A DNA stretch of 64,000 nt from a virus (Duplodnaviria; Caudoviricetes). The translations under genes and the position numbers were made by a program. The notes beneath the pieces are model-generated. The model saw only the letters and a list, made by a program, of their open reading frames with translations, ran no database searches and was not told the DNA's origin. Below are positions 31,882-63,913 of this stretch, in pieces (position 1 is the first letter of the stretch; every line of letters starts with the position of its first letter). The DNA lies in the IMG/VR virus record IMGVR_UViG_3300021255_003843, positions 32,001 to 96,000 of that record; one strand, 5' to 3'.

Positions 31882-32217
31882 TCACTGAGCCCAAGACAAA
31901 TCTCCAAGATCTTCTACCTTCGACATGACATTGGCCTTGCCAAGCATGTCTACGAAGCTCTGATTCATCTTCTGCGGCTTTGACATCGGGTTAGCTTCCT
32001 GTATCATTTTCCAACTGTCCTTTGCAAACGCGTTACCAGCATAGTTTACTACTGCGTCGTAATTAACACGCTTGCCCAAAGCCGCCAGGACGCTGTCGAA
32101 AAACGGAATGCTCATATCGTTTATTTTATTCTCATTTGTTTCGCCAAGGTAAACCGCGATCATTGCCACGGCTTCGTCAAGGTTTAATGATTCGTTTCCT
32201 TGGCTGCCCGGTTTTTT
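31882..32217 (-). CDS. Tail assembly chaperone C-terminal extension (gpT-like), reached by -1 frameshift
   Basis: The -1 frame is open from the slippery A-AAA-AAC (32217-32211) into ORF 31882..32169, which has no good RBS. Confidence 0.8.
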   Translation of the reverse strand, partial: KKPGSQGNESLNLDEAVAMIAVYLGETNENKINDMSIPFFDSVLAALGKRVNYDAVVNYAGNAFAKDSWKMIQEANPMSKPQKMNQSFVDMLGKANVMSKVEDLGDLSWAQ

Positions 32218-55198: not shown

Positions 55199-55489
55199 AT
55201 GACTGAACAGGCGCGTGGTTTCAAAGAAGGCGATCTGGTTGTTGTAAAGCCAGAATATGCAGATGTGATGTACGAAGCATACAAACACCTCATATTGTAC
55301 GGTACGCCTAAGTCTAAGCTTGGTAAAAACATTGCTCTCGGAGAACCCGCTATCGTTCTTCGCGTTTGGGATGACGAAATGTGGATAACCGACAAAGATG
55401 ACAGAACGGGAGAATTCATTGCACCTCTAACGCAATGGTTTACGTTTTATAAAAATAAAGCAATGGATGCAATTGATCATCTCCTGTAG
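55199..55489 (+). CDS. SH3/KOW-like paralog 2
   Basis: FKEGDLVVVKPEY...WF...IDHLL. Confidence 0.8.
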   Translation: MTEQARGFKEGDLVVVKPEYADVMYEAYKHLILYGTPKSKLGKNIALGEPAIVLRVWDDEMWITDKDDRTGEFIAPLTQWFTFYKNKAMDAIDHLL

Positions 55490-55499
55490 GAGGATTAAA

Positions 55500-55781
55500 A
55501 TGAGTAGTTTTGAAATTGGCGACATCGTAGTCGTCAAGCCAGAATATGCCTCATCCTTCAGAAACATATACGAAGGGCATGAGAGTTTGTTCAATAGACA
55601 TAAAGTTCGCTTCGGAATCAGCGTTTCGGAAGGCGCACCAGCGCGTGTCGTGCATACCACTTATGACGGCATCGACCTGACCGATCTCGACAATACACTC
55701 AGCCCCAACTCCTGGCTCTGCACCGAGAGAGAATGGTTTGAGCTCTATCAAGAGCGAGGACCGATCGAGCAGCTCTTGTGA
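55500..55781 (+). CDS. SH3/KOW-like paralog 3
   Basis: FEIGDIVVVKPEY...WFELY...IEQLL. Confidence 0.8.
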   Translation: MSSFEIGDIVVVKPEYASSFRNIYEGHESLFNRHKVRFGISVSEGAPARVVHTTYDGIDLTDLDNTLSPNSWLCTEREWFELYQERGPIEQLL

Positions 55782-55788
55782 GGTAACT

Positions 55789-56112
55789 ATGGATTATTTT
55801 CACGTTGGAGATATCGTCGTAGTAAAGCCTGAATATAGCGAAGAGCTGATAAGAAGCTATTCGTCTGGCTACAGCGACGCAAAATGCAAATTTGGTCGCG
55901 CTGTTGCGCGTGGCGCTCCAGCCAAGGTCGTCCACTGTCACAAAAGCGAAATTGTCAAAGTGTCAGACTACACGAAAGAGTATCTAACTTTTGGTGGCAG
56001 CAGCGGATGGCTAACAGATCTTGAGGAAACGCTGCAATGCGAGGATTATTTGCACCTAAGCAGCGCCTACTTTGACCTTTATATGCCTCCGATACCTGAT
56101 GGTCTGCTGTAG
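55789..56112 (+). CDS. SH3/KOW-like paralog 4
   Basis: FHVGDIVVVKPEY...YFDLY...DGLL. Confidence 0.8.
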   Translation: MDYFHVGDIVVVKPEYSEELIRSYSSGYSDAKCKFGRAVARGAPAKVVHCHKSEIVKVSDYTKEYLTFGGSSGWLTDLEETLQCEDYLHLSSAYFDLYMPPIPDGLL

Positions 56113-56122
56113 GAGTTTTATA

Positions 56123-56365
56123 ATGTGTTATGTGCATGAAATAGAAACGTTTCACGAAGGTGAAATCGTCGAAATGACAGACCATGTGAAAAAGTTACCA
56201 CGACTAAAAGAAGCCCGTATTTTACAGGATGACAAATTCCTAATAAAAGATGTAGGCGTAAACGGTATTTTAAAAATACAGAATATAAGAAACAACGAAG
56301 ATTACTATGTCAAAAACATTTCATTGCAGCACATAGTTCCTGAAGTTGAAACATGTCTTCTGTAG
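56123..56365 (+). CDS. SH3/KOW-like paralog 5
   Basis: FHEGEIVEM...ETCLL. Confidence 0.7.
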   Translation: MCYVHEIETFHEGEIVEMTDHVKKLPRLKEARILQDDKFLIKDVGVNGILKIQNIRNNEDYYVKNISLQHIVPEVETCLL

Positions 56366-56678
56366 GAGCGCCCATGCCAACATCAGTGTATCAGCCGGAC
56401 CAGTTTGTCGTCGCGCTGCTGTAATTATTGCGTGCCCCTTTGATCATCACCCGTGCAAATCGGGCAGGGGCTATACTCAACCTCCTTTCTGGACGCTGGC
56501 AAGCCGTCCAATGAAGCTTGCCAACAGGTTTGCGGTACTCGCCTGCCCTAATATAAAAAACCGTTGTGAGTAGACAGTCATGGCAGTGTGTCTGCAAGTC
56601 CCGGGAGTCCTCCAAGTGCAGGTAAATGCATAGCCTCGAACTCCCGGGGCGGACGTTCTATTTTGAAAGGAGACGCTC

Positions 56679-57134
56679 ATGCTGAGATTTGTCAAAGGTG
56701 ATTTGCTTGAAGCAAAAGAAGATTTCATCTGCCATCAGGTCAACTGCATGAGCGCAATGGGCTCAGGCATTGCTAACCAGATCGCGGACAAATGGCCTCA
56801 AGTAAAAACACTGTATTTATCAAAATGCCAGATGTTTGATGACAGAAGACTTCTGTTGGGCAAAGTTCAGTCTATAAAAATCGATGAACATCAATACGTA
56901 CTGAATATTTTCAGCCAGTATACTTATGGCAGCGACAAAAATACGGTCTATACAAACTATCCAGCTTTGCAGAAAGCGTTGTATCTGGCTCGTTTGCCTG
57001 ATAAAAGCTATGCTTTTCCGTACCACTTTGGATGCGGCTTAGCGAACGGCGACTGGACAACTGTTCGTTCGCTAATTGAGAAAATACTGGCCTATGACCA
57101 CGAAGTTGTTATTTACAAGAGGTACGCCACATGA
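56679..57134 (+). CDS. Macrodomain protein (Poa1p/TARG1-like ADP-ribose hydrolase family)
   Basis: KGDLL...ICHQVNC...MGSGIA..I...P...N.FSQ...T.Y...FP..FGCGLANGDW. Confidence 0.88.
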   Translation: MLRFVKGDLLEAKEDFICHQVNCMSAMGSGIANQIADKWPQVKTLYLSKCQMFDDRRLLLGKVQSIKIDEHQYVLNIFSQYTYGSDKNTVYTNYPALQKALYLARLPDKSYAFPYHFGCGLANGDWTTVRSLIEKILAYDHEVVIYKRYAT

Positions 57135-57400
57135 AAGGAAACGCTAAGCTATACAAACCAGGCGACGAAGTGTTCGTCTCCGACGATATTATGTATATGA
57201 ATACCAGTGACGGCGTAGGCATTGCAGAAGCGATGAAAACAATGGCCGGCCAACGTCTGACAATCAAAGCTATTTCCGATGGATATCCGAAGTGTGGCTT
57301 GTGTTATATCGTAAAAGAAAATACTTTCTTATGGCAGGATGAAATGTTGGAGCCCATTAGCAACATTGACATGACCGCCATGGACAGCCTGCTTTTATGA
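57131..57400 (+). CDS. SH3/KOW-like paralog 6
   Basis: YKPGDEVFV...MAG..LTI...WQDEMLEP...DSLLL. Confidence 0.8.
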   Translation: MKGNAKLYKPGDEVFVSDDIMYMNTSDGVGIAEAMKTMAGQRLTIKAISDGYPKCGLCYIVKENTFLWQDEMLEPISNIDMTAMDSLLL

Positions 57401-57410
57401 GGTAATAACT

Positions 57411-57692
57411 ATGTTTCAAGAAGGAGATCTCGTCGTAGCGAAAAACCCGGCAAGAATGCGAGAAACATATAAAGATTGGGCCAAACGATACCCGGATGAA
57501 CGCATCAAGTATGAACTCGGGCTGAAATTTGCTGACGGTGCGCCTCTTGAAATTATCAGGATGAGAGGAGCCACCGGCGTAGTTCTCGGCCCAGTTGGTT
57601 CGTCATGCACAGACAACGACAAAACGCTCTGGCTCAACTCAGGCGATCTTGCGCTTTGCGACGACATGCAGCCTGTGTCTGATTTATTGTGA
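57411..57692 (+). CDS. SH3/KOW-like paralog 7
   Basis: FQEGDLVVAK...VSDLL. Confidence 0.8.
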   Translation: MFQEGDLVVAKNPARMRETYKDWAKRYPDERIKYELGLKFADGAPLEIIRMRGATGVVLGPVGSSCTDNDKTLWLNSGDLALCDDMQPVSDLL

Positions 57693-57699
57693 GGTAGCT

Positions 57700-57909
57700 A
57701 TGTTTCGAGTAGGCGATATAGCAATAGCCAATGAACGCGCCAAAGGCGTTTATTCAATAACCAAGCCAGGCTGGATCGGCACAGTTATCAGGGTTTATCC
57801 TGGTTTCATTACAGTAGCCGGAAAAGAAGGCAATTTCACTGTATGTTCGGAACACTTCGATCTTTATAAGGATCCTCTTGATATCAAAGACATCTCGCGG
57901 TTGATATGA
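57700..57909 (+). CDS. SH3/KOW-like paralog 8
   Basis: FRVGDIAIAN..A...Y.IT..GW.G.V...HFDLY...SRLI. Confidence 0.8.
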   Translation: MFRVGDIAIANERAKGVYSITKPGWIGTVIRVYPGFITVAGKEGNFTVCSEHFDLYKDPLDIKDISRLI

Positions 57910-57917
57910 CCGCATAT

Positions 57918-57990
57918 GGCCTCTTAGCTCAGCCGGTAGAGCAGCTGACTGTTAATCAGCCGGTCGCGCGTTCAAATCGCGCAGAGGCCT
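57918..57990 (+). tRNA. tRNA-Asn(GUU)
   Basis: Acceptor GGCCTCT/AGAGGCC, D arm GCTC/GAGC, anticodon arm GCTGA-CT GTT AA-TCAGC, T loop TTCAAAT; no encoded CCA. Confidence 0.92.
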
Positions 57991-58162
57991 CGTCGGGACG
58001 ATCTGCCGGAAAATGGCGCAGATCACGCGCAACGCTGTTGGAACAGAAGGCTTGGGTTGCGCAACTTGTCAGCAAAAGAAATATCTATAGTTTTTAGCCA
58101 TTTCCATGCCTTGCTTACAGCTGACAGCCCTGCCGCTGGGGTCATAATACAGCGGATTTTAT

Positions 58163-58355
58163 GGAGACTTAGCTCAACTGGGAGAGCGCCAGCGTTGCTC
58201 AGCGTAGGTCAGATGTATAGTCAGGAACTGACCAAAGCGTTTCGGCTCGGCAATATAACTCACCCCGTGATATTAAACGTTGCCATATTTTGTTGAGGAC
58301 AGAATAAGCGGATGCACGCAAGAGGTCGGCGATTCGAACCCGCCAGTCTCCACCA
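58163..58355 (+). ncRNA. tRNA-Ala(UGC)-derived RNA with 117-nt structured insertion at the anticodon
   Basis: Acceptor GGAGACT/AGTCTCC-ACCA, D arm and T loop intact; removing 58199..58315 gives exactly 76 nt with a TGC anticodon. Confidence 0.8.
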
Positions 58356-58454
58356 GGTGCTGCCTTACAGGGGGCAGTATGCCGGAGTCATGACCGGCAC
58401 TTCTGTACGTCGTTTTGGCACCGGTTTGGGCGCTATAATCTAACTGGTGCACGT

Positions 58455-58528
58455 GGGGATTTAGCTCATCAGGTCAGAGCAGCGCTCTTATAAAGCGCAG
58501 GTGCATGGTTCAAGTCCATGAATCCCTA
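58455..58528 (+). tRNA. tRNA-Ile(UAU)
   Basis: GGGGATT/AATCCCT acceptor, GCGCT-CT TAT AA-AGCGC anticodon arm, CATGG-TTCAAGT-CCATG T arm, A73. Confidence 0.9.
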
Positions 58529-58601
58529 TTTGCCCGTGACCATGGAAACACGGGCAAGACGCATCGCCTCTTTAAAATATAGCCGGCGTGTCCGGCTATA
58601 T

Positions 58602-58673
58602 AGGGGAGTAGCCAAACGGAAAGGCACGGGACTTTGACTCCCGCATGTGAAGGTTCAACTCCTTCCTCCCCTG
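58602..58673 (+). tRNA. tRNA-Gln(UUG)
   Basis: AGGGGAG/CTCCCCT acceptor, CGGGA-CT TTG AC-TCCCG, GAAGG-TTCAACT-CCTTC, G73. Confidence 0.92.
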
Positions 58674-58694
58674 CTACGAAATCAAGGAGCTTAT

Positions 58695-58943
58695 ATGGCG
58701 TGTAAATTCAAACCCGGCGACGTGATCGTCGGCAACGATCTCGCTGACGAACGTTACTTTATCACTAACAAAGGCTGGATCGGTCAGGTCATTTCTGTAA
58801 GCCGGGACTGCTTTAGCGCAAAAACGCTTTACAAAAGCGGCAAGCTTGGCACACTTTTTCCTGCCCTTGGTTACGAATACTTTAACGTGCTCGAACCAGA
58901 ATTCGACGCCAAGCATATTAAACAGATGGCAATGATATTATAG
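58695..58943 (+). CDS. SH3/KOW-like paralog 9
   Basis: FKPGDVIVGN..A...Y.IT.KGWIG.V...YF...AMIL. Confidence 0.8.
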   Translation: MACKFKPGDVIVGNDLADERYFITNKGWIGQVISVSRDCFSAKTLYKSGKLGTLFPALGYEYFNVLEPEFDAKHIKQMAMIL

Positions 58944-58953
58944 GAGCGACCGT

Positions 58954-59196
58954 ATGCTGTCACAAACAAAATTTCAGATAGGCGATTATGTGATCGGCAC
59001 AAAGGAAGCTACCGCGCACTATGCGATCACAAAAGAGGGCTGGACCGGTCAGATAACGGAAATACGGAAATATACTATCATGGTGTACGGCAAAGACAAC
59101 TGTGACCGTGACAGATGGTTCGAAGTAGAGCCTAAATATTTTGAATCATGTGATTCGCAAAATTTCAATCAGAACGAGTTTCAGCAGATATTGTAG
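58954..59196 (+). CDS. SH3/KOW-like paralog 10
   Basis: FQIGDYVIGT..A...Y.IT..GW.G.I...YFE...QQIL. Confidence 0.8.
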   Translation: MLSQTKFQIGDYVIGTKEATAHYAITKEGWTGQITEIRKYTIMVYGKDNCDRDRWFEVEPKYFESCDSQNFNQNEFQQIL

Positions 59197-59205
59197 GGAG
59201 AAACC

Positions 59206-59442
59206 ATGGATCGCAACACTCGATATAAAGTAGGCGACATCGTGCGGTGCTATCGGAAGTTTATTGATGTTCCGGAAGAAACGCTGTTCGAAATTGTCCA
59301 AGTAAACGCCTATTCTTATTATACTACATATCTCATCACGCCGGCCACGATGGATGGCAAGCGTTATTATGTTCGCGCGGAAAGTATTCGCAAGGCGAGC
59401 GTGAACGATTTTGACAAGCGGAAAATTAAAACTCTGCTGTAA
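59206..59442 (+). CDS. SH3/KOW-like paralog 11
   Basis: YKVGDIVRC...KTLL. Confidence 0.8.
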   Translation: MDRNTRYKVGDIVRCYRKFIDVPEETLFEIVQVNAYSYYTTYLITPATMDGKRYYVRAESIRKASVNDFDKRKIKTLL

Positions 59443-59451
59443 GGAGACAAC

Positions 59452-59784
59452 ATGTTTAGTCCATTGAATTATTCGCCGGAAGATCTGTTCGATGACGAAA
59501 ACAAAGACGGCCTCGACAGCGAGCGCTTTGTCGTCGGCGACAGTGTATACATTCATCCGGACCTGCGCGAAACCGACAAGGGTGCGTCCGTGACGGAAGA
59601 TATGCTCAACTATGCCGGTTCGCTTGCCAGAATCGTGAGAGTGCTGGGCAACTCGTATAAGCTCGATGTTGATGATGCAGACTGGGTCTGGGATGATTAC
59701 TGTCTTCTGAGTCAGAATGAGTTCGCGCAATATATTACTGGCGTTGCCAAGGTAGAAATCAAACGGCTGGAGGGCTTGATATGA
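59452..59784 (+). CDS. SH3/KOW-like paralog 12
   Basis: FVVGDSVYIHPDL...M..YAG...Y.LD....W.DYCL...EGLI. Confidence 0.8.
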   Translation: MFSPLNYSPEDLFDDENKDGLDSERFVVGDSVYIHPDLRETDKGASVTEDMLNYAGSLARIVRVLGNSYKLDVDDADWVWDDYCLLSQNEFAQYITGVAKVEIKRLEGLI

Positions 59785-60086
59785 GCTACGATATCTTCGA
59801 CATTCACAACGAAGAGGGCATATGCGCCAAATTGTTCGATGTTGGTGATAAAGTAATCATCCGTTCTGACATCAGACCGACCAATAAACACCCGACGATC
59901 ACATCGCAAATGGCGGCCTTGGCAGGCAAAGAAGGTACCGTTGTCCGTAAAAACGGTGACGCTTCTTATCTTCTTGATATTTCAGGAGGCGAATACGGCT
60001 ACGTCTGGTGCGATTACTGTTTCGAGCCTCCGGACACAGGCGCTGCTAATTCACAAATAACCGAGTCTATGCCGGTTCTGCTGTAA
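59781..60086 (+). CDS. SH3/KOW-like paralog 13
   Basis: FDVGDKVIIRSDI...M..LAG...Y.LD...W.DYCFEP...PVLL. Confidence 0.8.
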   Translation: MSYDIFDIHNEEGICAKLFDVGDKVIIRSDIRPTNKHPTITSQMAALAGKEGTVVRKNGDASYLLDISGGEYGYVWCDYCFEPPDTGAANSQITESMPVLL

Positions 60087-60132: not shown

Positions 60133-60287
60133 TAGAACACCTCGGAAAGGAGGGAGTATATGGTTCGGGTGAGATCGCCCAGCGCATATTCATAAAACCT
60201 TTGACCCAGTTCCATATCTTGTTTGCAGATGCAAACACCAATAAAACCCAATTTAAAACAAATTTCAAAACAAAAAGGAGAAACACT

Positions 60288-60893
60288 ATGATTTCTATCA
60301 CCCTGCTCACCAATGCTGGCCGTCAGACTACTCCCGTGTCCGAAGATACCTCTATCCGCGAAGTGCTGGATTCCAAGCACATCAACTATGCCGCCTCCGT
60401 CGTTCAGCTGGATGGCTGCGCGCTGCGCCCCGGCGACATGGATAAGACCTTCGCCGAAATGGGCATCAAAGACAGCTGCTATCTGACAGCCGTCGTTAAG
60501 GCGGATAATGCTGCCAAGGTCACCGTGGTTGGCGAAGCCGCCGTTGTCACCTCCGCGCTGAAGCTGGCAGACATCAAGACCGCCAAGAAGTATCGCCCGG
60601 AAGCCTTGGAGCTGAAGAAGGACAAGGATGTCATCTTCGCTGTTGACACCACTGATCGTTCCGCCGGCTCCATCAATATCCACGGCGCAACCTTCTCCAA
60701 CGCCACGGACGCTGATGGCTATGCCACCATCACCATGACCGTGGATCGCGGCGAGGATGTTGAGAAGACTCTGCTCGATAAGATCGGCATGGGCCTGCTG
60801 CTGTTGAATCAGGTCGAGGAAGCCTTCGGCGAACAGCTGGCGTCCATCCAGGCTGATCAGGCGAAGATCAAGTCTCTGATCGACATCAAGTAA
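60288..60893 (+). CDS. Ubiquitin-like (beta-grasp) domain (aa 1-75, ending KADNA) fused to a ~126-aa C-terminal domain
   Basis: Ubl-like pattern: I.ITL...TSIREVL...V.LDG..L...DMDKTFAEMGI...CYL..VVK; first gene of the E2/JAB/E1 operon. Confidence 0.75.
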   Translation: MISITLLTNAGRQTTPVSEDTSIREVLDSKHINYAASVVQLDGCALRPGDMDKTFAEMGIKDSCYLTAVVKADNAAKVTVVGEAAVVTSALKLADIKTAKKYRPEALELKKDKDVIFAVDTTDRSAGSINIHGATFSNATDADGYATITMTVDRGEDVEKTLLDKIGMGLLLLNQVEEAFGEQLASIQADQAKIKSLIDIK

Positions 60894-60906: not shown

Positions 60907-60942
60907 AAGGCGGCGTCCCCATTCAAGGGACGCCGCCTTTTT
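60907..60942 (+). terminator. Intra-operon terminator after Ubl gene
   Basis: AAGGCGGCGTCCC-CATTCAA-GGGACGCCGCC-TTTTT. Confidence 0.8.
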
Positions 60943-60975: not shown

Positions 60976-62385
60976 ATGTTCGGAAATACGTTTAATGAAA
61001 TCAAATATTTTGGCGACGCGTTCGCCGAACAACACGAGAAGTTGAGCAGGATCACGCAGCGCGGAAATTATCAGAATGATAAGACGATGCTGGCGTTTGC
61101 ACGAGCCCTTCTATTTAACAGGCTCCCGGAAGGCGAAACCTTCTCCATCAATATCTACCCCATCGACAGCCCGATCTATCAGGACATGATGGACCATCCA
61201 AAGGAGAAGGACGAGCTGCACAATCAGCTGTTCGTTTTCTACAAGGAAGACGATACAATCGACGAAGCGCAGGTCAACGCGTTCTACGCCAAGTATCCTA
61301 CGTTCCATATCATGCAGCAGCATATGGACTTCTTCTCATCGTGCGCAAAAGCCTGGTGCTACAACGATACTGAGAACATTTCCGCCATCCTGTTTCTGCA
61401 GGAAGCGAATGTGCGCAAGATGCACCTGCTGTTCTCCATGCTCTCCGCCTACTTCAAGCCTCTGTGCCCGGTCATGACCGGCTATGAGAAGACAGATTTC
61501 TGCCCGTCCATGACCAAGCGCGCTTCTCAGCCCTTTGAGGAGTGCATGGCTCACCTGGCGCATGAGTATGGCATCGATCAGGAGTATATGGCGTTCATGA
61601 TCCGGAACTACACCCGGAACAACGTACGTGTCGTTATCGATCAGGCTGAACGCACTCTGGCTGAACGGCGGGACACGCTGCAGCGTAATATCGAAGAGTA
61701 CACTAATCTATACCGCGCTTTCAAGCAGGCTTCTGATAACGTTGAACTGCTGAAATCTCGCCCCGTCGAAGAAGATACAGAGCTCGTAGATTTCTTCAAG
61801 GCACATAAGAATATCAGGCTGTTCGACGTCAGCGGCGATATGCTCAAGTTCTATGTACTGGGTACTCTTGAGTGGTTTGATCTTGAATTCTATCATCGCG
61901 CGGCGAGGAACGATAATGCCATCTACCGCATCAACGCGCCACGGGCTTTCTCTGAGCTGGAAGACCGCAAACTGTTGATGGACGCCATCTTCTCCGATGA
62001 TCCGATTTTCAAAATCCGCATGTGCTCATCCTATGGTCTGTCTATCACCGGCGATGTGGACGTCTGGGCTAACTATAACTATCCCGCGGATATACTTAAG
62101 CAGTATATTCCGAATCCGCATATTCAGTATCACCGCTGCCTCGGCGACCATCGTGATCCGATCCGCCGCGCGCTGAGAGACAATAACATGCCGCTCGCCA
62201 TCGAGCAGTGTATCGCCTCCGCTCAGTCCGTCAATATTGCGGAGCGCAGCGTCACCTTCGATCCGTTCATGAAGAACGTATTCAGCTCCACAAACAAGAT
62301 TCTGGTGGATATGAAAGGCAAAGAATATACGCCCGTCGAGGCTCTGAAATATCTGAAAAAGAAAGCGCAGGCTGAGAGCAAATGA
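60976..62385 (+). CDS. Putative prokaryotic E2-like conjugating enzyme with N-terminal domain and coiled coil
   Basis: C-terminal PNPHIQYHRCLG (xPH...CLG, Cys388); operon context. Confidence 0.65.
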   Translation: MFGNTFNEIKYFGDAFAEQHEKLSRITQRGNYQNDKTMLAFARALLFNRLPEGETFSINIYPIDSPIYQDMMDHPKEKDELHNQLFVFYKEDDTIDEAQVNAFYAKYPTFHIMQQHMDFFSSCAKAWCYNDTENISAILFLQEANVRKMHLLFSMLSAYFKPLCPVMTGYEKTDFCPSMTKRASQPFEECMAHLAHEYGIDQEYMAFMIRNYTRNNVRVVIDQAERTLAERRDTLQRNIEEYTNLYRAFKQASDNVELLKSRPVEEDTELVDFFKAHKNIRLFDVSGDMLKFYVLGTLEWFDLEFYHRAARNDNAIYRINAPRAFSELEDRKLLMDAIFSDDPIFKIRMCSSYGLSITGDVDVWANYNYPADILKQYIPNPHIQYHRCLGDHRDPIRRALRDNNMPLAIEQCIASAQSVNIAERSVTFDPFMKNVFSSTNKILVDMKGKEYTPVEALKYLKKKAQAESK

Positions 62386-63230
62386 AAACGATAAAGATCA
62401 CGGAAGCCGATAAGGCCGCCATCAGGGAAGAGTTTGAGAAAACTCTGGCTGATTACCGGCTTCCGAACGGCGAGTTCAAGTTTACAAAATCCTTCGCCGC
62501 CCGCAAAGCGGCGAAGGATGAGCGCATCACGCTCTATTATACGCCGGACGCATATCTGAAGATCACCGCTCTGGTGAACAAGTTCGATACAGAGGTAGGC
62601 TGGCATGGTCTCGTCCGTAAGGTAGACGATAAGACTTACCTGATCTATGACATCCTGGTCTATAAGCAGGAGGTCACCGGCGCAACCGTCAACACGGATC
62701 AGGATGAGTATGTCGAATTCCTGAAGAATCTCACCGACGAGCAGGCCGAGCATATGTTCTATCACGGCCACAGCCATGTCAATATGGGTGTGTTCGCCTC
62801 CTCTGTGGATATGGATCACCGCGCACGCCTGATCCAGTGTGCTGATGAAAACGGTTTCTGGATTTTTCAAATTTGGAACAAACGTAAGGAAGTTTCGACC
62901 GTACTCTATGACCTCGCCAATAATGTTCTGTATGACTCGGATGACATCGATATGACCGTCCTGTTCGCGGACGGCTCCGACGTTACGGAGTTCACTGCGA
63001 ACGCGGATAAGCTCGTCGTAAAAAAAAATACCTTGCCCGCTCAGGTCAAGATCGACAGCAAGTGGTCGGGCGGCTCTTACAATACCGCGCAAAAAGAGCC
63101 CGAAAAGTCCAAAAAGGCAGAAAAAGCTAAGGATAAGAAGAAGTACGAGGACTATGACGACGACCTGATTGACGATGGCACTAAGCCTTATGGCTATGGC
63201 TATGGTTACGGGTATGGCTACAATTACTAA
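62382..63230 (+). CDS. JAB/MPN+ (JAMM) metallopeptidase
   Basis: EVGWHG...HSH-x7-S-x2-D (HSHVNMGVFASSVD); acidic and YG-repeat tail. Confidence 0.9.
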   Translation: MKTIKITEADKAAIREEFEKTLADYRLPNGEFKFTKSFAARKAAKDERITLYYTPDAYLKITALVNKFDTEVGWHGLVRKVDDKTYLIYDILVYKQEVTGATVNTDQDEYVEFLKNLTDEQAEHMFYHGHSHVNMGVFASSVDMDHRARLIQCADENGFWIFQIWNKRKEVSTVLYDLANNVLYDSDDIDMTVLFADGSDVTEFTANADKLVVKKNTLPAQVKIDSKWSGGSYNTAQKEPEKSKKAEKAKDKKKYEDYDDDLIDDGTKPYGYGYGYGYGYNY

Positions 63231-63241
63231 GGAGAGAAGAC

Positions 63242-63913
63242 ATGGATCTTTCTAAATCCTATGAATTCTTCCAGCCTTCCATGTGCGACGGCCGCATCCA
63301 CATCATCGGATGCGGCTCCGTCGGCTCTACAGTGGCGGAACTGCTGGTTCGCTACGGCCTGACCAATATCACGCTCTATGATTTTGATCATGTCGAGGCT
63401 CACAACATCGCTAATCAGATGTTCGATAGTACCGACATCGGCAAGGAAAAGGTCACAGCCGTGGCCGATCATCTGATCGCTATCAATCCGGAGCTGCGGG
63501 ACACTCTGCGCATCGCCGATAAGGGCTATACAAATCAGAAGCTCTCCGGCTATGTATTCCTGTGTGTCGACAATATCGACCTTCGACGCAAGATCGCCGA
63601 GGAAAACAGGAACAATGTATTTATCAAGGCGATGTTCGATTTCAGGACCCGCCTGACCGACGCCCAGCACTACGCTGCGGATTGGTCTGACGAAAAGCAC
63701 AAGGAAGCCTTCATCAATTCTATGCAATTCTCGCACGAGGAGGCGTCCAAGGAGACGCCTATGTCCGCCTGCCATGTCACCCTCAGTGTGGCGGCGACAG
63801 TGCGCCTGATCTGCACCTACGGGGTCGTCAACTTCATTGACTTCCTCAAGAAAGGGACCCTCAAGAAGACCGTACTCATCAACACAGAGCTCTGGGACTT
63901 GATGGGTATCTAA
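63242..63913 (+). CDS. ThiF/E1-like adenylyltransferase
   Basis: IIGCGSVGS, DFDHVEAHNIANQ, GKEKV.A, CVDN...R; candidate catalytic Cys in SACH. Confidence 0.92.
   Translation: MDLSKSYEFFQPSMCDGRIHIIGCGSVGSTVAELLVRYGLTNITLYDFDHVEAHNIANQMFDSTDIGKEKVTAVADHLIAINPELRDTLRIADKGYTNQKLSGYVFLCVDNIDLRRKIAEENRNNVFIKAMFDFRTRLTDAQHYAADWSDEKHKEAFINSMQFSHEEASKETPMSACHVTLSVAATVRLICTYGVVNFIDFLKKGTLKKTVLINTELWDLMGI

Follow-up and report, generated by a model that had tools for sequence, protein, structure and literature searches.

To our knowledge, the ubiquitin-type tagging systems described in bacteria until now (CBASS, Bil and Bub) serve in anti-phage defence. In eukaryotes, ubiquitin-ribosomal protein fusions have their N-terminal modifier freed by a specific peptidase. 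For prokaryotes, JAB release of N-terminal ubiquitin-like modifiers (Ubls) from fusions was predicted by Iyer et al. in 2006 (PMC1779556), and the SAMP1-MoaE fusion with HvJAMM1 provides an archaeal example of a JAMM-released modifier (PMC4443979). Type I Bub operons make a Ubl-E2 pre-protein, BubAB, which is cut after a conserved Gly by the JAB domain of BubCD (PMC11601596). In Type II CBASS, cGAS is conjugated via a C-terminal Gly or Ala (Cap2 conjugates a natural enzyme ending in Ala), and the JAB Cap3 cuts linear fusions exactly at the cGAS C-terminus (PMC10097602). In Bil, BilC trims BilA between G97 and A98, and a terminal Ala blocks ATP binding (PMC10557695). No description of a phage Ubl/ThiF/JAB cassette, or of a link between a retron and a Ubl, was found in the literature.

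The window analysed here is a stretch of 64,000 nucleotides (positions 32,001 to 96,000) of the 105,495-bp Caudoviricetes virus record IMGVR_UViG_3300021255_003843. On its + strand, a single ORF of 201 residues extends from an ATG at 60288 to a stop codon at 60891-60893. The following features were assigned to it.

60276..60280, + strand: ribosome-binding site AGGAG, 7 nt 5′ of the ATG, read from the sequence
60288..60512, + strand: Ubl beta-grasp domain, residues 1-75, from AF2, Foldseek, VIA and stand-alone 75-aa homologs
60498..60512, + strand: tail K71-A72-D73-N74-A75 of this domain, with invariant N74 and A75; most split Ubl genes stop here
60513..60890, + strand: partner domain, residues 76-201, with a beta-rich core and a 40-residue C-terminal helix, from AF2

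An initial reading of this DNA made from the letters alone (the sequence-only reading) had placed the end of a Ubl-like domain at about residue 75 (nt 60512), in the motif KADNA, and had seen an in-frame second domain closing in a helix. Coordinates and the AF2 model agree with the first boundary, and residues 76-201 indeed end in the 40-residue helix. The start codon needed correction in the ORF list, where the frame began at an upstream TTG (60201). This TTG was rejected because homologs begin with M-I-x-[VI]-T, as does the protein when read from 60288; judged from this shared N-terminus, the ATG at 60288 is the true start. The fused form was recovered as about 36 protein clusters of 201-212 aa in a search among metagenome proteins of similar length. 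Since 12 distinct fused loci were found in addition to these clusters, the comparison indicates that the fusion is not an assembly artefact. Fused forms longer than 352 aa were looked for and none was found. Searches of Pfam, NCBIfam, PHROGs and PADLOC yielded no usable assignment for the 201-aa protein; BIg21, with an E value of 0.12, was the sole match.

The AF2 model of the 201-aa protein, calculated with 24 homologs as input, has a mean pLDDT of 86, and values below 50 are restricted to residues 72-74. Residues 1-70 show the beta-beta-alpha-beta-(alpha)-beta topology of the beta-grasp fold, with strands 2-8, 11-17, 38-41 and 63-69 and helices 23-29 and 48-52. Using Foldseek, the domain matched ubiquitin and SUMO with a probability of 1.0 (target TM 0.6-0.67, rmsd 2.6-3.3 over about 74 residues). 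Using VIA, the Z scores for ubiquitin and SUMO were 8-9.5, and that for the bacterial BilA chain 8tyz_B was 8.4. As in E1-activated Ubl modifiers, a beta-grasp fold of about 75 residues is therefore present, and a ThiF-family E1 is encoded in the operon at all loci examined. The Gly or Gly-Gly end of these modifiers is however absent: the six-residue flexible tail V70-A75 ends in Asn-Ala. As the sequence-only reading had noted, there is no C-terminal Gly, both the tail K71-A72-D73-N74-A75 and the end of the whole protein (...LIDIK) being Gly-free. A sulfur carrier of the ThiS/MoaD type was considered and rejected, given the ubiquitin/SUMO-like fold, the lack of Gly-Gly and the presence of an E2-like protein and of a JAB; no sulfur-transfer or cofactor gene is found among the four genes studied here. 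The name "archaellin" carried by one homolog at JGI is unsupported. INPHARED contained one unannotated 35-kb record, matching the Ubl part only.

Downstream of the fusion gene, the following features were identified.

60907..60942, + strand: terminator-like hairpin with a 13-bp GC-rich stem, a 7-nt loop and a U run, from RNA folding
60976..62385, + strand: E2-like protein, 469 aa, from alignment, AF2 and VIA
62382..63230, + strand: JAMM/JAB metalloprotease, 282 aa, from its zinc motif
63242..63913, + strand: minimal ThiF-type E1, 223 aa, from a Pfam ThiF match at 4e-22

The hairpin itself spans 60907-60939, ahead of the U run. Its folding energy is -30.1 kcal/mol (z = -6.25) and 0 of 200 shuffled sequences folded as well, though a scan for consensus terminators did not list it. 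Such a strong hairpin right 3′ of the fusion gene, between the Ubl-partner gene and the enzyme genes, suggests that modifier and partner are produced in excess over the enzymes. The E2-like, JAMM and E1 genes are found downstream of the Ubl in every locus studied, whatever the fused or split state of the latter.

The AF2 model of the 469-aa protein (pLDDT 86.6) shows an N-terminal alpha/beta domain, a 60-residue helix and a C-terminal UBC/RWD-like domain. In the latter domain, residues 266-446 form a helix, four strands, a loop and then helices. Its best VIA matches are RWD domains, which by established classification are part of the UBC/E2 superfamily, with middling Z scores of 6.2-6.8 (Knl1 4nf9, 6.8; Ltn1 8aaf, 6.3); Foldseek found no match for this domain. 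N380, H382 and C388 are invariant in the alignment of the homologs, which are 470-540 aa long across loci. As Foldseek gave no match and the evidence consists of the middling RWD match (Z 6.8) plus an N-x-H...C motif, the protein is a probable, not a firm, E2. For residues 1-160 (60976-61500), only faint similarity to MogA/MoaB and flavodoxin-like folds was detected by Foldseek (E 0.1-0.7). The 60-residue helix (residues 200-261; 61570-61760) is a single one and lies ahead of the UBC/RWD-like domain.

In the JAMM/JAB protein, the zinc motif E...HxH x7 S xx D (E71, H130, H132, S140 and D143) is invariant in 20 sequences. Its profile aligns HxH...S..D with the same motif in Rpn11 (E 0.027), and PADLOC gave a weak JAB match (E 0.004). 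This protein is the candidate enzyme for both processing and deconjugation. Its C-terminus (63190-63227) is a Gly-Tyr repeat (GYGYGYGYGYNY) following a Lys/Glu-rich stretch, and its homologs, 270-360 aa in total length, carry long and variable low-complexity C-terminal tails. Finally, the best PADLOC match of the E1 is the Cap2 E1-E2 (5e-20), the match covering E1 residues 11-86 only. Its PDB matches are MoeB, UBA5, MccB (E 2.5e-7) and Cap2, with MccB no better than the others. GxGxxG, D110 and C177 are invariant, C177 being found in 77 E1s.

The tail of the Ubl was compared across 91 distinct domains. N74 and A75 are 100% conserved, K71 99% and D73 98%. The mean conservation is 0.92 at positions 70-75 as compared to 0.65 elsewhere in the domain, a figure that is partly circular for those rows of the set that were picked by the pattern K-x-[DE]-N-A. 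On this alignment, the conservation of the tail is not a matter of chance. The position after A75, by contrast, is variable (A, V, L, N, R or I). Since A75 is invariant while the next residue varies, this is the pattern that would result if the functional part of the Ubl closed with Ala75 and whatever lies beyond were cut off. We predict that the KADNA tail is the counterpart of ubiquitin's LRGG, with the scissile bond 3′ of nt 60512.

To compare gene layouts in related phages, IMG/VR was scanned twice. This gave 146 loci on phage contigs of 20-150 kb, about 95 of them distinct after removal of duplicates. The MAGs that contain related contigs are those of gut Clostridia (Lachnospiraceae, Oscillospiraceae, Ruminococcus and Defluviitaleaceae). 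The distinct loci fall into three layouts.

83 distinct loci: split, a partner gene followed by a separate Ubl gene
11 distinct loci: Ubl-partner fusion, as in the window
1 locus (L053): mixed, with a partner gene first, then two fusions, then a Ubl gene

A fusion is thus found at 12 of the 95 loci (11 fused only and one mixed), and the partner is a separate gene of about 130 aa at 83 of them. The sequence-only reading had proposed to look for homologs in which the gene stops at KADNA with the second domain encoded apart, and such homologs were obtained in number: of the Ubl genes at the 83 split loci, 62 have their stop codon immediately after K-x-[D/E]-N-A. The others bear a tail consisting of R (12 loci), A (5 loci), LAA (2 loci) or TSK (1 locus), or an in-frame TGA inside the tail (1 locus, L039). 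The short variable tails R, A, LAA and TSK would need trimming. In L039 (8494-8735), the Ubl reads ...V-K-A-D, TGA, L-A-G-N-A-K, stop, with an N-A end 12 nt past the TGA, which could correspond to a small insertion, a broken gene or read-through. A search among short proteins with residues 1-80 gave a similar picture, as 6 of 11 complete stand-alone Ubls stop exactly at ...V-K-A-D-N-A; the remaining ones extend further, by A, N, AR or LAA in some cases and by a longer tail in others.

On the partner side, the search for proteins of similar length returned a dozen proteins of about 132 aa that cover the second half only. These begin with M-A-K, in register in the alignment with A75-A76-K77 of the fusion. 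In an exhaustive profile search, 128 of 140 stand-alone partners start with M-A or M-S, N-termini at which methionine aminopeptidase would expose Ala or Ser. As the split Ubl stops at D-N-A and the partner would lose its Met, both layouts are expected to yield the same mature pair, a Ubl ending in ...D-N-A and a partner starting with A-K, joined in the fusion at A75|A76. The cut guessed in the sequence-only reading, KADNA|AKV, is this very bond and matches the gene ends of the split relatives.

A quick maximum-likelihood tree (IQ-TREE), computed from 79 E1 sequences, was used to examine the distribution of the two layouts. The fused/split label changes four times on this tree, and at least two of the changes are forced by well-supported branches. 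Fused and split layouts thus replaced each other more than once. Because such switching is easy only if the layouts are functionally equivalent, they are probably interchangeable. No linker is present at the fused joint, and the partner is kept from its residue 2 in every fused lineage. The mixed locus L053 (7056-9468, on a contig shared with L075) has a lone partner gene, two tandem fusions and a Ubl gene ending in KADNA-AA. It is likely an intermediate between the split and fused layouts, arising via tandem duplication: tandem partner-Ubl pairs would set a Ubl gene before a partner gene, and the two would then be fused.

The comparison of layouts bears on whether the fusion is processed at all. 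Many UBL-domain proteins are never processed, and the beta-grasp domain could be a docking module that brings the partner to the E1, the E2 or the JAB, the enzymes using another C-terminus; the SH3-like mini-proteins encoded upstream do share a conserved C-terminal tail. Yet most relatives make a free 75-aa Ubl, and each switch between fused and split forms would then alter function. Moreover, the tail, not the surface, is the most conserved part of the Ubl. Finally, the Ubl domain of the window is the only one in the 105,495-bp record, in which no other ORF bears or ends in a K-x-D-N-A motif. We therefore hold docking without cleavage to be very unlikely.

With a single Ubl in this phage, the E1 would have no substrate unless the precursor is cut. 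From the comparison of gene ends, which supports it well, we infer that the precursor is cleaved, most likely by the JAB. In the reading that we favour and regard as probable, the precursor is cut at A75|A76, most likely by the JAB, and Ala75 is activated by the E1 and conjugated via the E2-like protein. The JAMM/JAB would cut between Ala75 and Ala76, yielding in a 1:1 ratio a Ubl with a free C-terminal Ala and a partner starting with Ala-Lys, the N-terminus that the split form would have after Met removal. The ThiF-type E1 would then adenylate the Ala75 carboxylate and take the Ubl onto Cys177 as a thioester. The E2-like protein would next receive the Ubl on its Cys388 and hand it to targets, a conjugation that the JAB could also undo. 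Consistent with use of the whole set in fused phages, 15 of 15 fused loci keep C177 and D110 of the E1, H382 and C388 of the E2-like protein and the E..HxH..S..D motif of the JAB. Activation at Ala and conjugation are steps that we infer. As most split Ubl genes need no processing, the main role of the JAB may be deconjugation.

Cleavage might also proceed without the JAB, by a host protease or by self-cleavage at Asn-Ala through a succinimide, as in the C-terminal cleavage of inteins. Asn before a small residue tends to cyclise, and N74 is invariant. Asn cyclisation, however, cuts after the Asn and would give the wrong products. In addition, a dedicated JAMM with an intact active site is present in every locus, and in the related systems Bub, Bil and CBASS this task falls to a JAB (PMC11601596, PMC10557695, PMC10097602). 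Cleavage by other means than the JAB thus appears extremely unlikely.

The sequence-only reading had left the exposed terminus as either Ala or Asn. Ala is the end that stood, since 62 of the 83 split genes stop there; an Asn end fits less well. With Asn74 as the reactive end, the JAB would strip Ala75 onward and the E1 would activate Asn as MccB does with the MccA peptide. BilA provides an example of a conserved reactive residue followed by a removable tail, in which the terminal Ala blocks ATP binding (PMC10557695), and by analogy Ala75 could be removed likewise. N74 and A75 are equally invariant, and MccB is among the PDB matches of the E1 (E 2.5e-7). MccB scores no better, however, than MoeB, UBA5 or Cap2, and in Bil the residues after the Gly are unconserved, whereas in these phages Ala75 never varies and is encoded by the last codon in 62 of 83 split genes. 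A cut at N74|A75 would moreover leave a partner starting with A-A-K in fused phages as opposed to A-K in split ones. Finally, natural Ala ends do get conjugated in CBASS (PMC10097602). Activation at Asn74 is therefore an unlikely version of the mechanism.

Type I Bub resembles this locus in that the Ubl forms the N-terminal part of a fusion protein, the rest being an operon partner of about 130 residues, and in that the operon has a JAB. As proposed here, the JAB would likewise cut right after the conserved last residue of the Ubl, giving Ubl and partner in equal amounts. In Bub, however, the Ubl has a Gly end and is joined to an E2 of UBC fold bearing a catalytic Ser/His pair (invariant Ser, His and Asp), whereas the end here is Ala and no UBC fold or conserved catalytic pair was detected in the partner, the fold searches having been filled by the Ubl. 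The Bub E1 has no catalytic Cys (a crossover-loop Tyr is found and oxyesters are formed) and forms one protein with the JAB, and the operon also encodes a DUF6527 protease. In this phage, in contrast, both the E1 and the E2-like protein carry an invariant Cys, and JAB and E1 are separate genes.

The rule of a Gly or Ala end in Type II CBASS agrees with Ala75; a JAB is present in both cases and the E1 is closest to Cap2. In CBASS, the substrate is a nucleotidyltransferase (CD-NTase), E2 and E1 form one polypeptide and the system serves bacterial defence, whereas here the substrate is a beta-grasp domain and the E1 stands alone; no CD-NTase or effector is found among the four genes studied here. 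With Bil, the locus shares the gene order Ubl, E2, JAB, E1 and a true beta-grasp Ubl (8tyz_B, Z 8.4). The Bil JAB pre-processes the Ubl and reverses conjugation (PMC10557695), the same two roles that are proposed for the phage JAB. BilA has a universally conserved Gly and an unconserved tail, and the catalytic Cys of BilD lies in a domain of its own. The phage Ubl ends instead in an invariant Asn-Ala, and the set includes a conserved partner protein alongside an E1 of 223 aa and a 469-aa E2-like protein that bears additional domains. As in ubiquitin-ribosomal fusions and in archaeal and mycobacterial fusions of the MoaD-MoaE type, an N-terminal modifier is fused to a functional partner, the prokaryotic peptidase being a JAMM. 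There, however, the modifier ends in Gly-Gly and is joined to a ribosomal protein or to MoaE, whose roles are known, as opposed to an Asn-Ala end and an uncharacterised partner here. Because its E1 carries a Cys, JAB and E1 are unfused, the conserved Gly is lacking and neither a CD-NTase nor an E2-E1 fusion is present, we file the system as belonging to none of Bub, Bil and CBASS.

The sequence-only reading had spoken of a non-canonical conjugation chemistry. This was overstated as to activation, since that of Ala is precedented in CBASS, though the terminal residue is indeed unusual for a beta-grasp Ubl. By analogy with these systems, the chemistry is not new, each part of the reading having a tested precedent. 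What is new is the invariant Asn-Ala end on a true beta-grasp modifier, its fixed companion, an uncharacterised 130-residue protein, what appears to be a minimal Cys-bearing E1 working with a large separate E2-like protein, and the carriage of the system by a phage.

The partner is beta-rich at residues 77-157, followed by one long helix at residues 158-197 in the AF2 model. Its family comprises 1250 clusters at 50% identity (E <= 0.001), nearly all of them stand-alone proteins of about 130 aa without annotation. No match was found in Pfam, NCBIfam, PHROG or PADLOC, and a profile search of the PDB gave nothing below an E value of 0.5. In the ESM Atlas, no feature matched and the structural TM scores were all <0.5; in BFVD, the matches were uncharacterised phage proteins only. 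Fold searches used the two-domain model, and their matches were filled by the Ubl domain, not the partner. S89, in the second strand, is invariant, with no conserved His nearby.

The clean joint between the two proteins could also mean that the fusion is the product of the system, the E1 and E2 of split-gene phages linking Ala75 to the N-terminal alpha-amino group of the partner. The fused gene would then encode this linear conjugate, which the JAB would open. The joint is indeed free of linker and every fused lineage retains the partner from residue 2 onward, the two genes are invariably neighbours, the fusion arose at least twice, and 128 of 140 partners expose Ala or Ser once the Met is removed. 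A clean joint is however equally expected if selection acts on the mature ends only. Characterised bacterial systems conjugate mainly lysines (PMC10097602, PMC10557695), and fused phages keep the catalytic residues of E1 and E2, so that free Ubl is still used elsewhere. Such a role of the fusion is in our view quite improbable. With similarly slender odds, the partner may be a dedicated acceptor, used together with diversified SH3-like adaptors and the neighbouring retron.

Several neighbouring genes were observed. The region directly upstream of the Ubl gene (55199-60086) contains some twelve paralogous small ORFs (78-124 aa), almost all of which have a hydrophobic dipeptide (LL, IL or LI) as their last two residues; in L002 (7234-7749), the Ubl genes likewise come after small ORFs with an LL end. 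In the array of SH3-like mini-proteins, a 151-aa ORF (56679-57134) matches Macro (ADP-ribose binding/hydrolase) over almost the whole profile, at a sub-threshold score (E 0.002, 18.3 bits as compared to the Pfam cutoff of 22). A reverse-transcriptase ORF with Y-A-D-D follows the E1, sometimes with one gene between, in L001 (10872-12044), L002 (12364-13596) and L004 (13061-14197).

Overall, a large group of uncultured phages of gut and rumen Clostridia, represented by more than 100 viral contigs, has its own complete set of ubiquitin-type genes. The alternation of fused and split genes maps the mature end of the tag without experiment. A ubiquitin-fold modifier with Ala as its presumed reactive residue, preceded by an invariant Asn, would widen the Gly-end rule, and the system offers a ready test of the way in which the two terminal residues are recognised by E1 and JAMM enzymes. 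If the partner were the acceptor, the phage would possess a genetically hard-wired, reversible two-state switch. The always-linked 130-residue partner is a pointer to what these phages use the system for.
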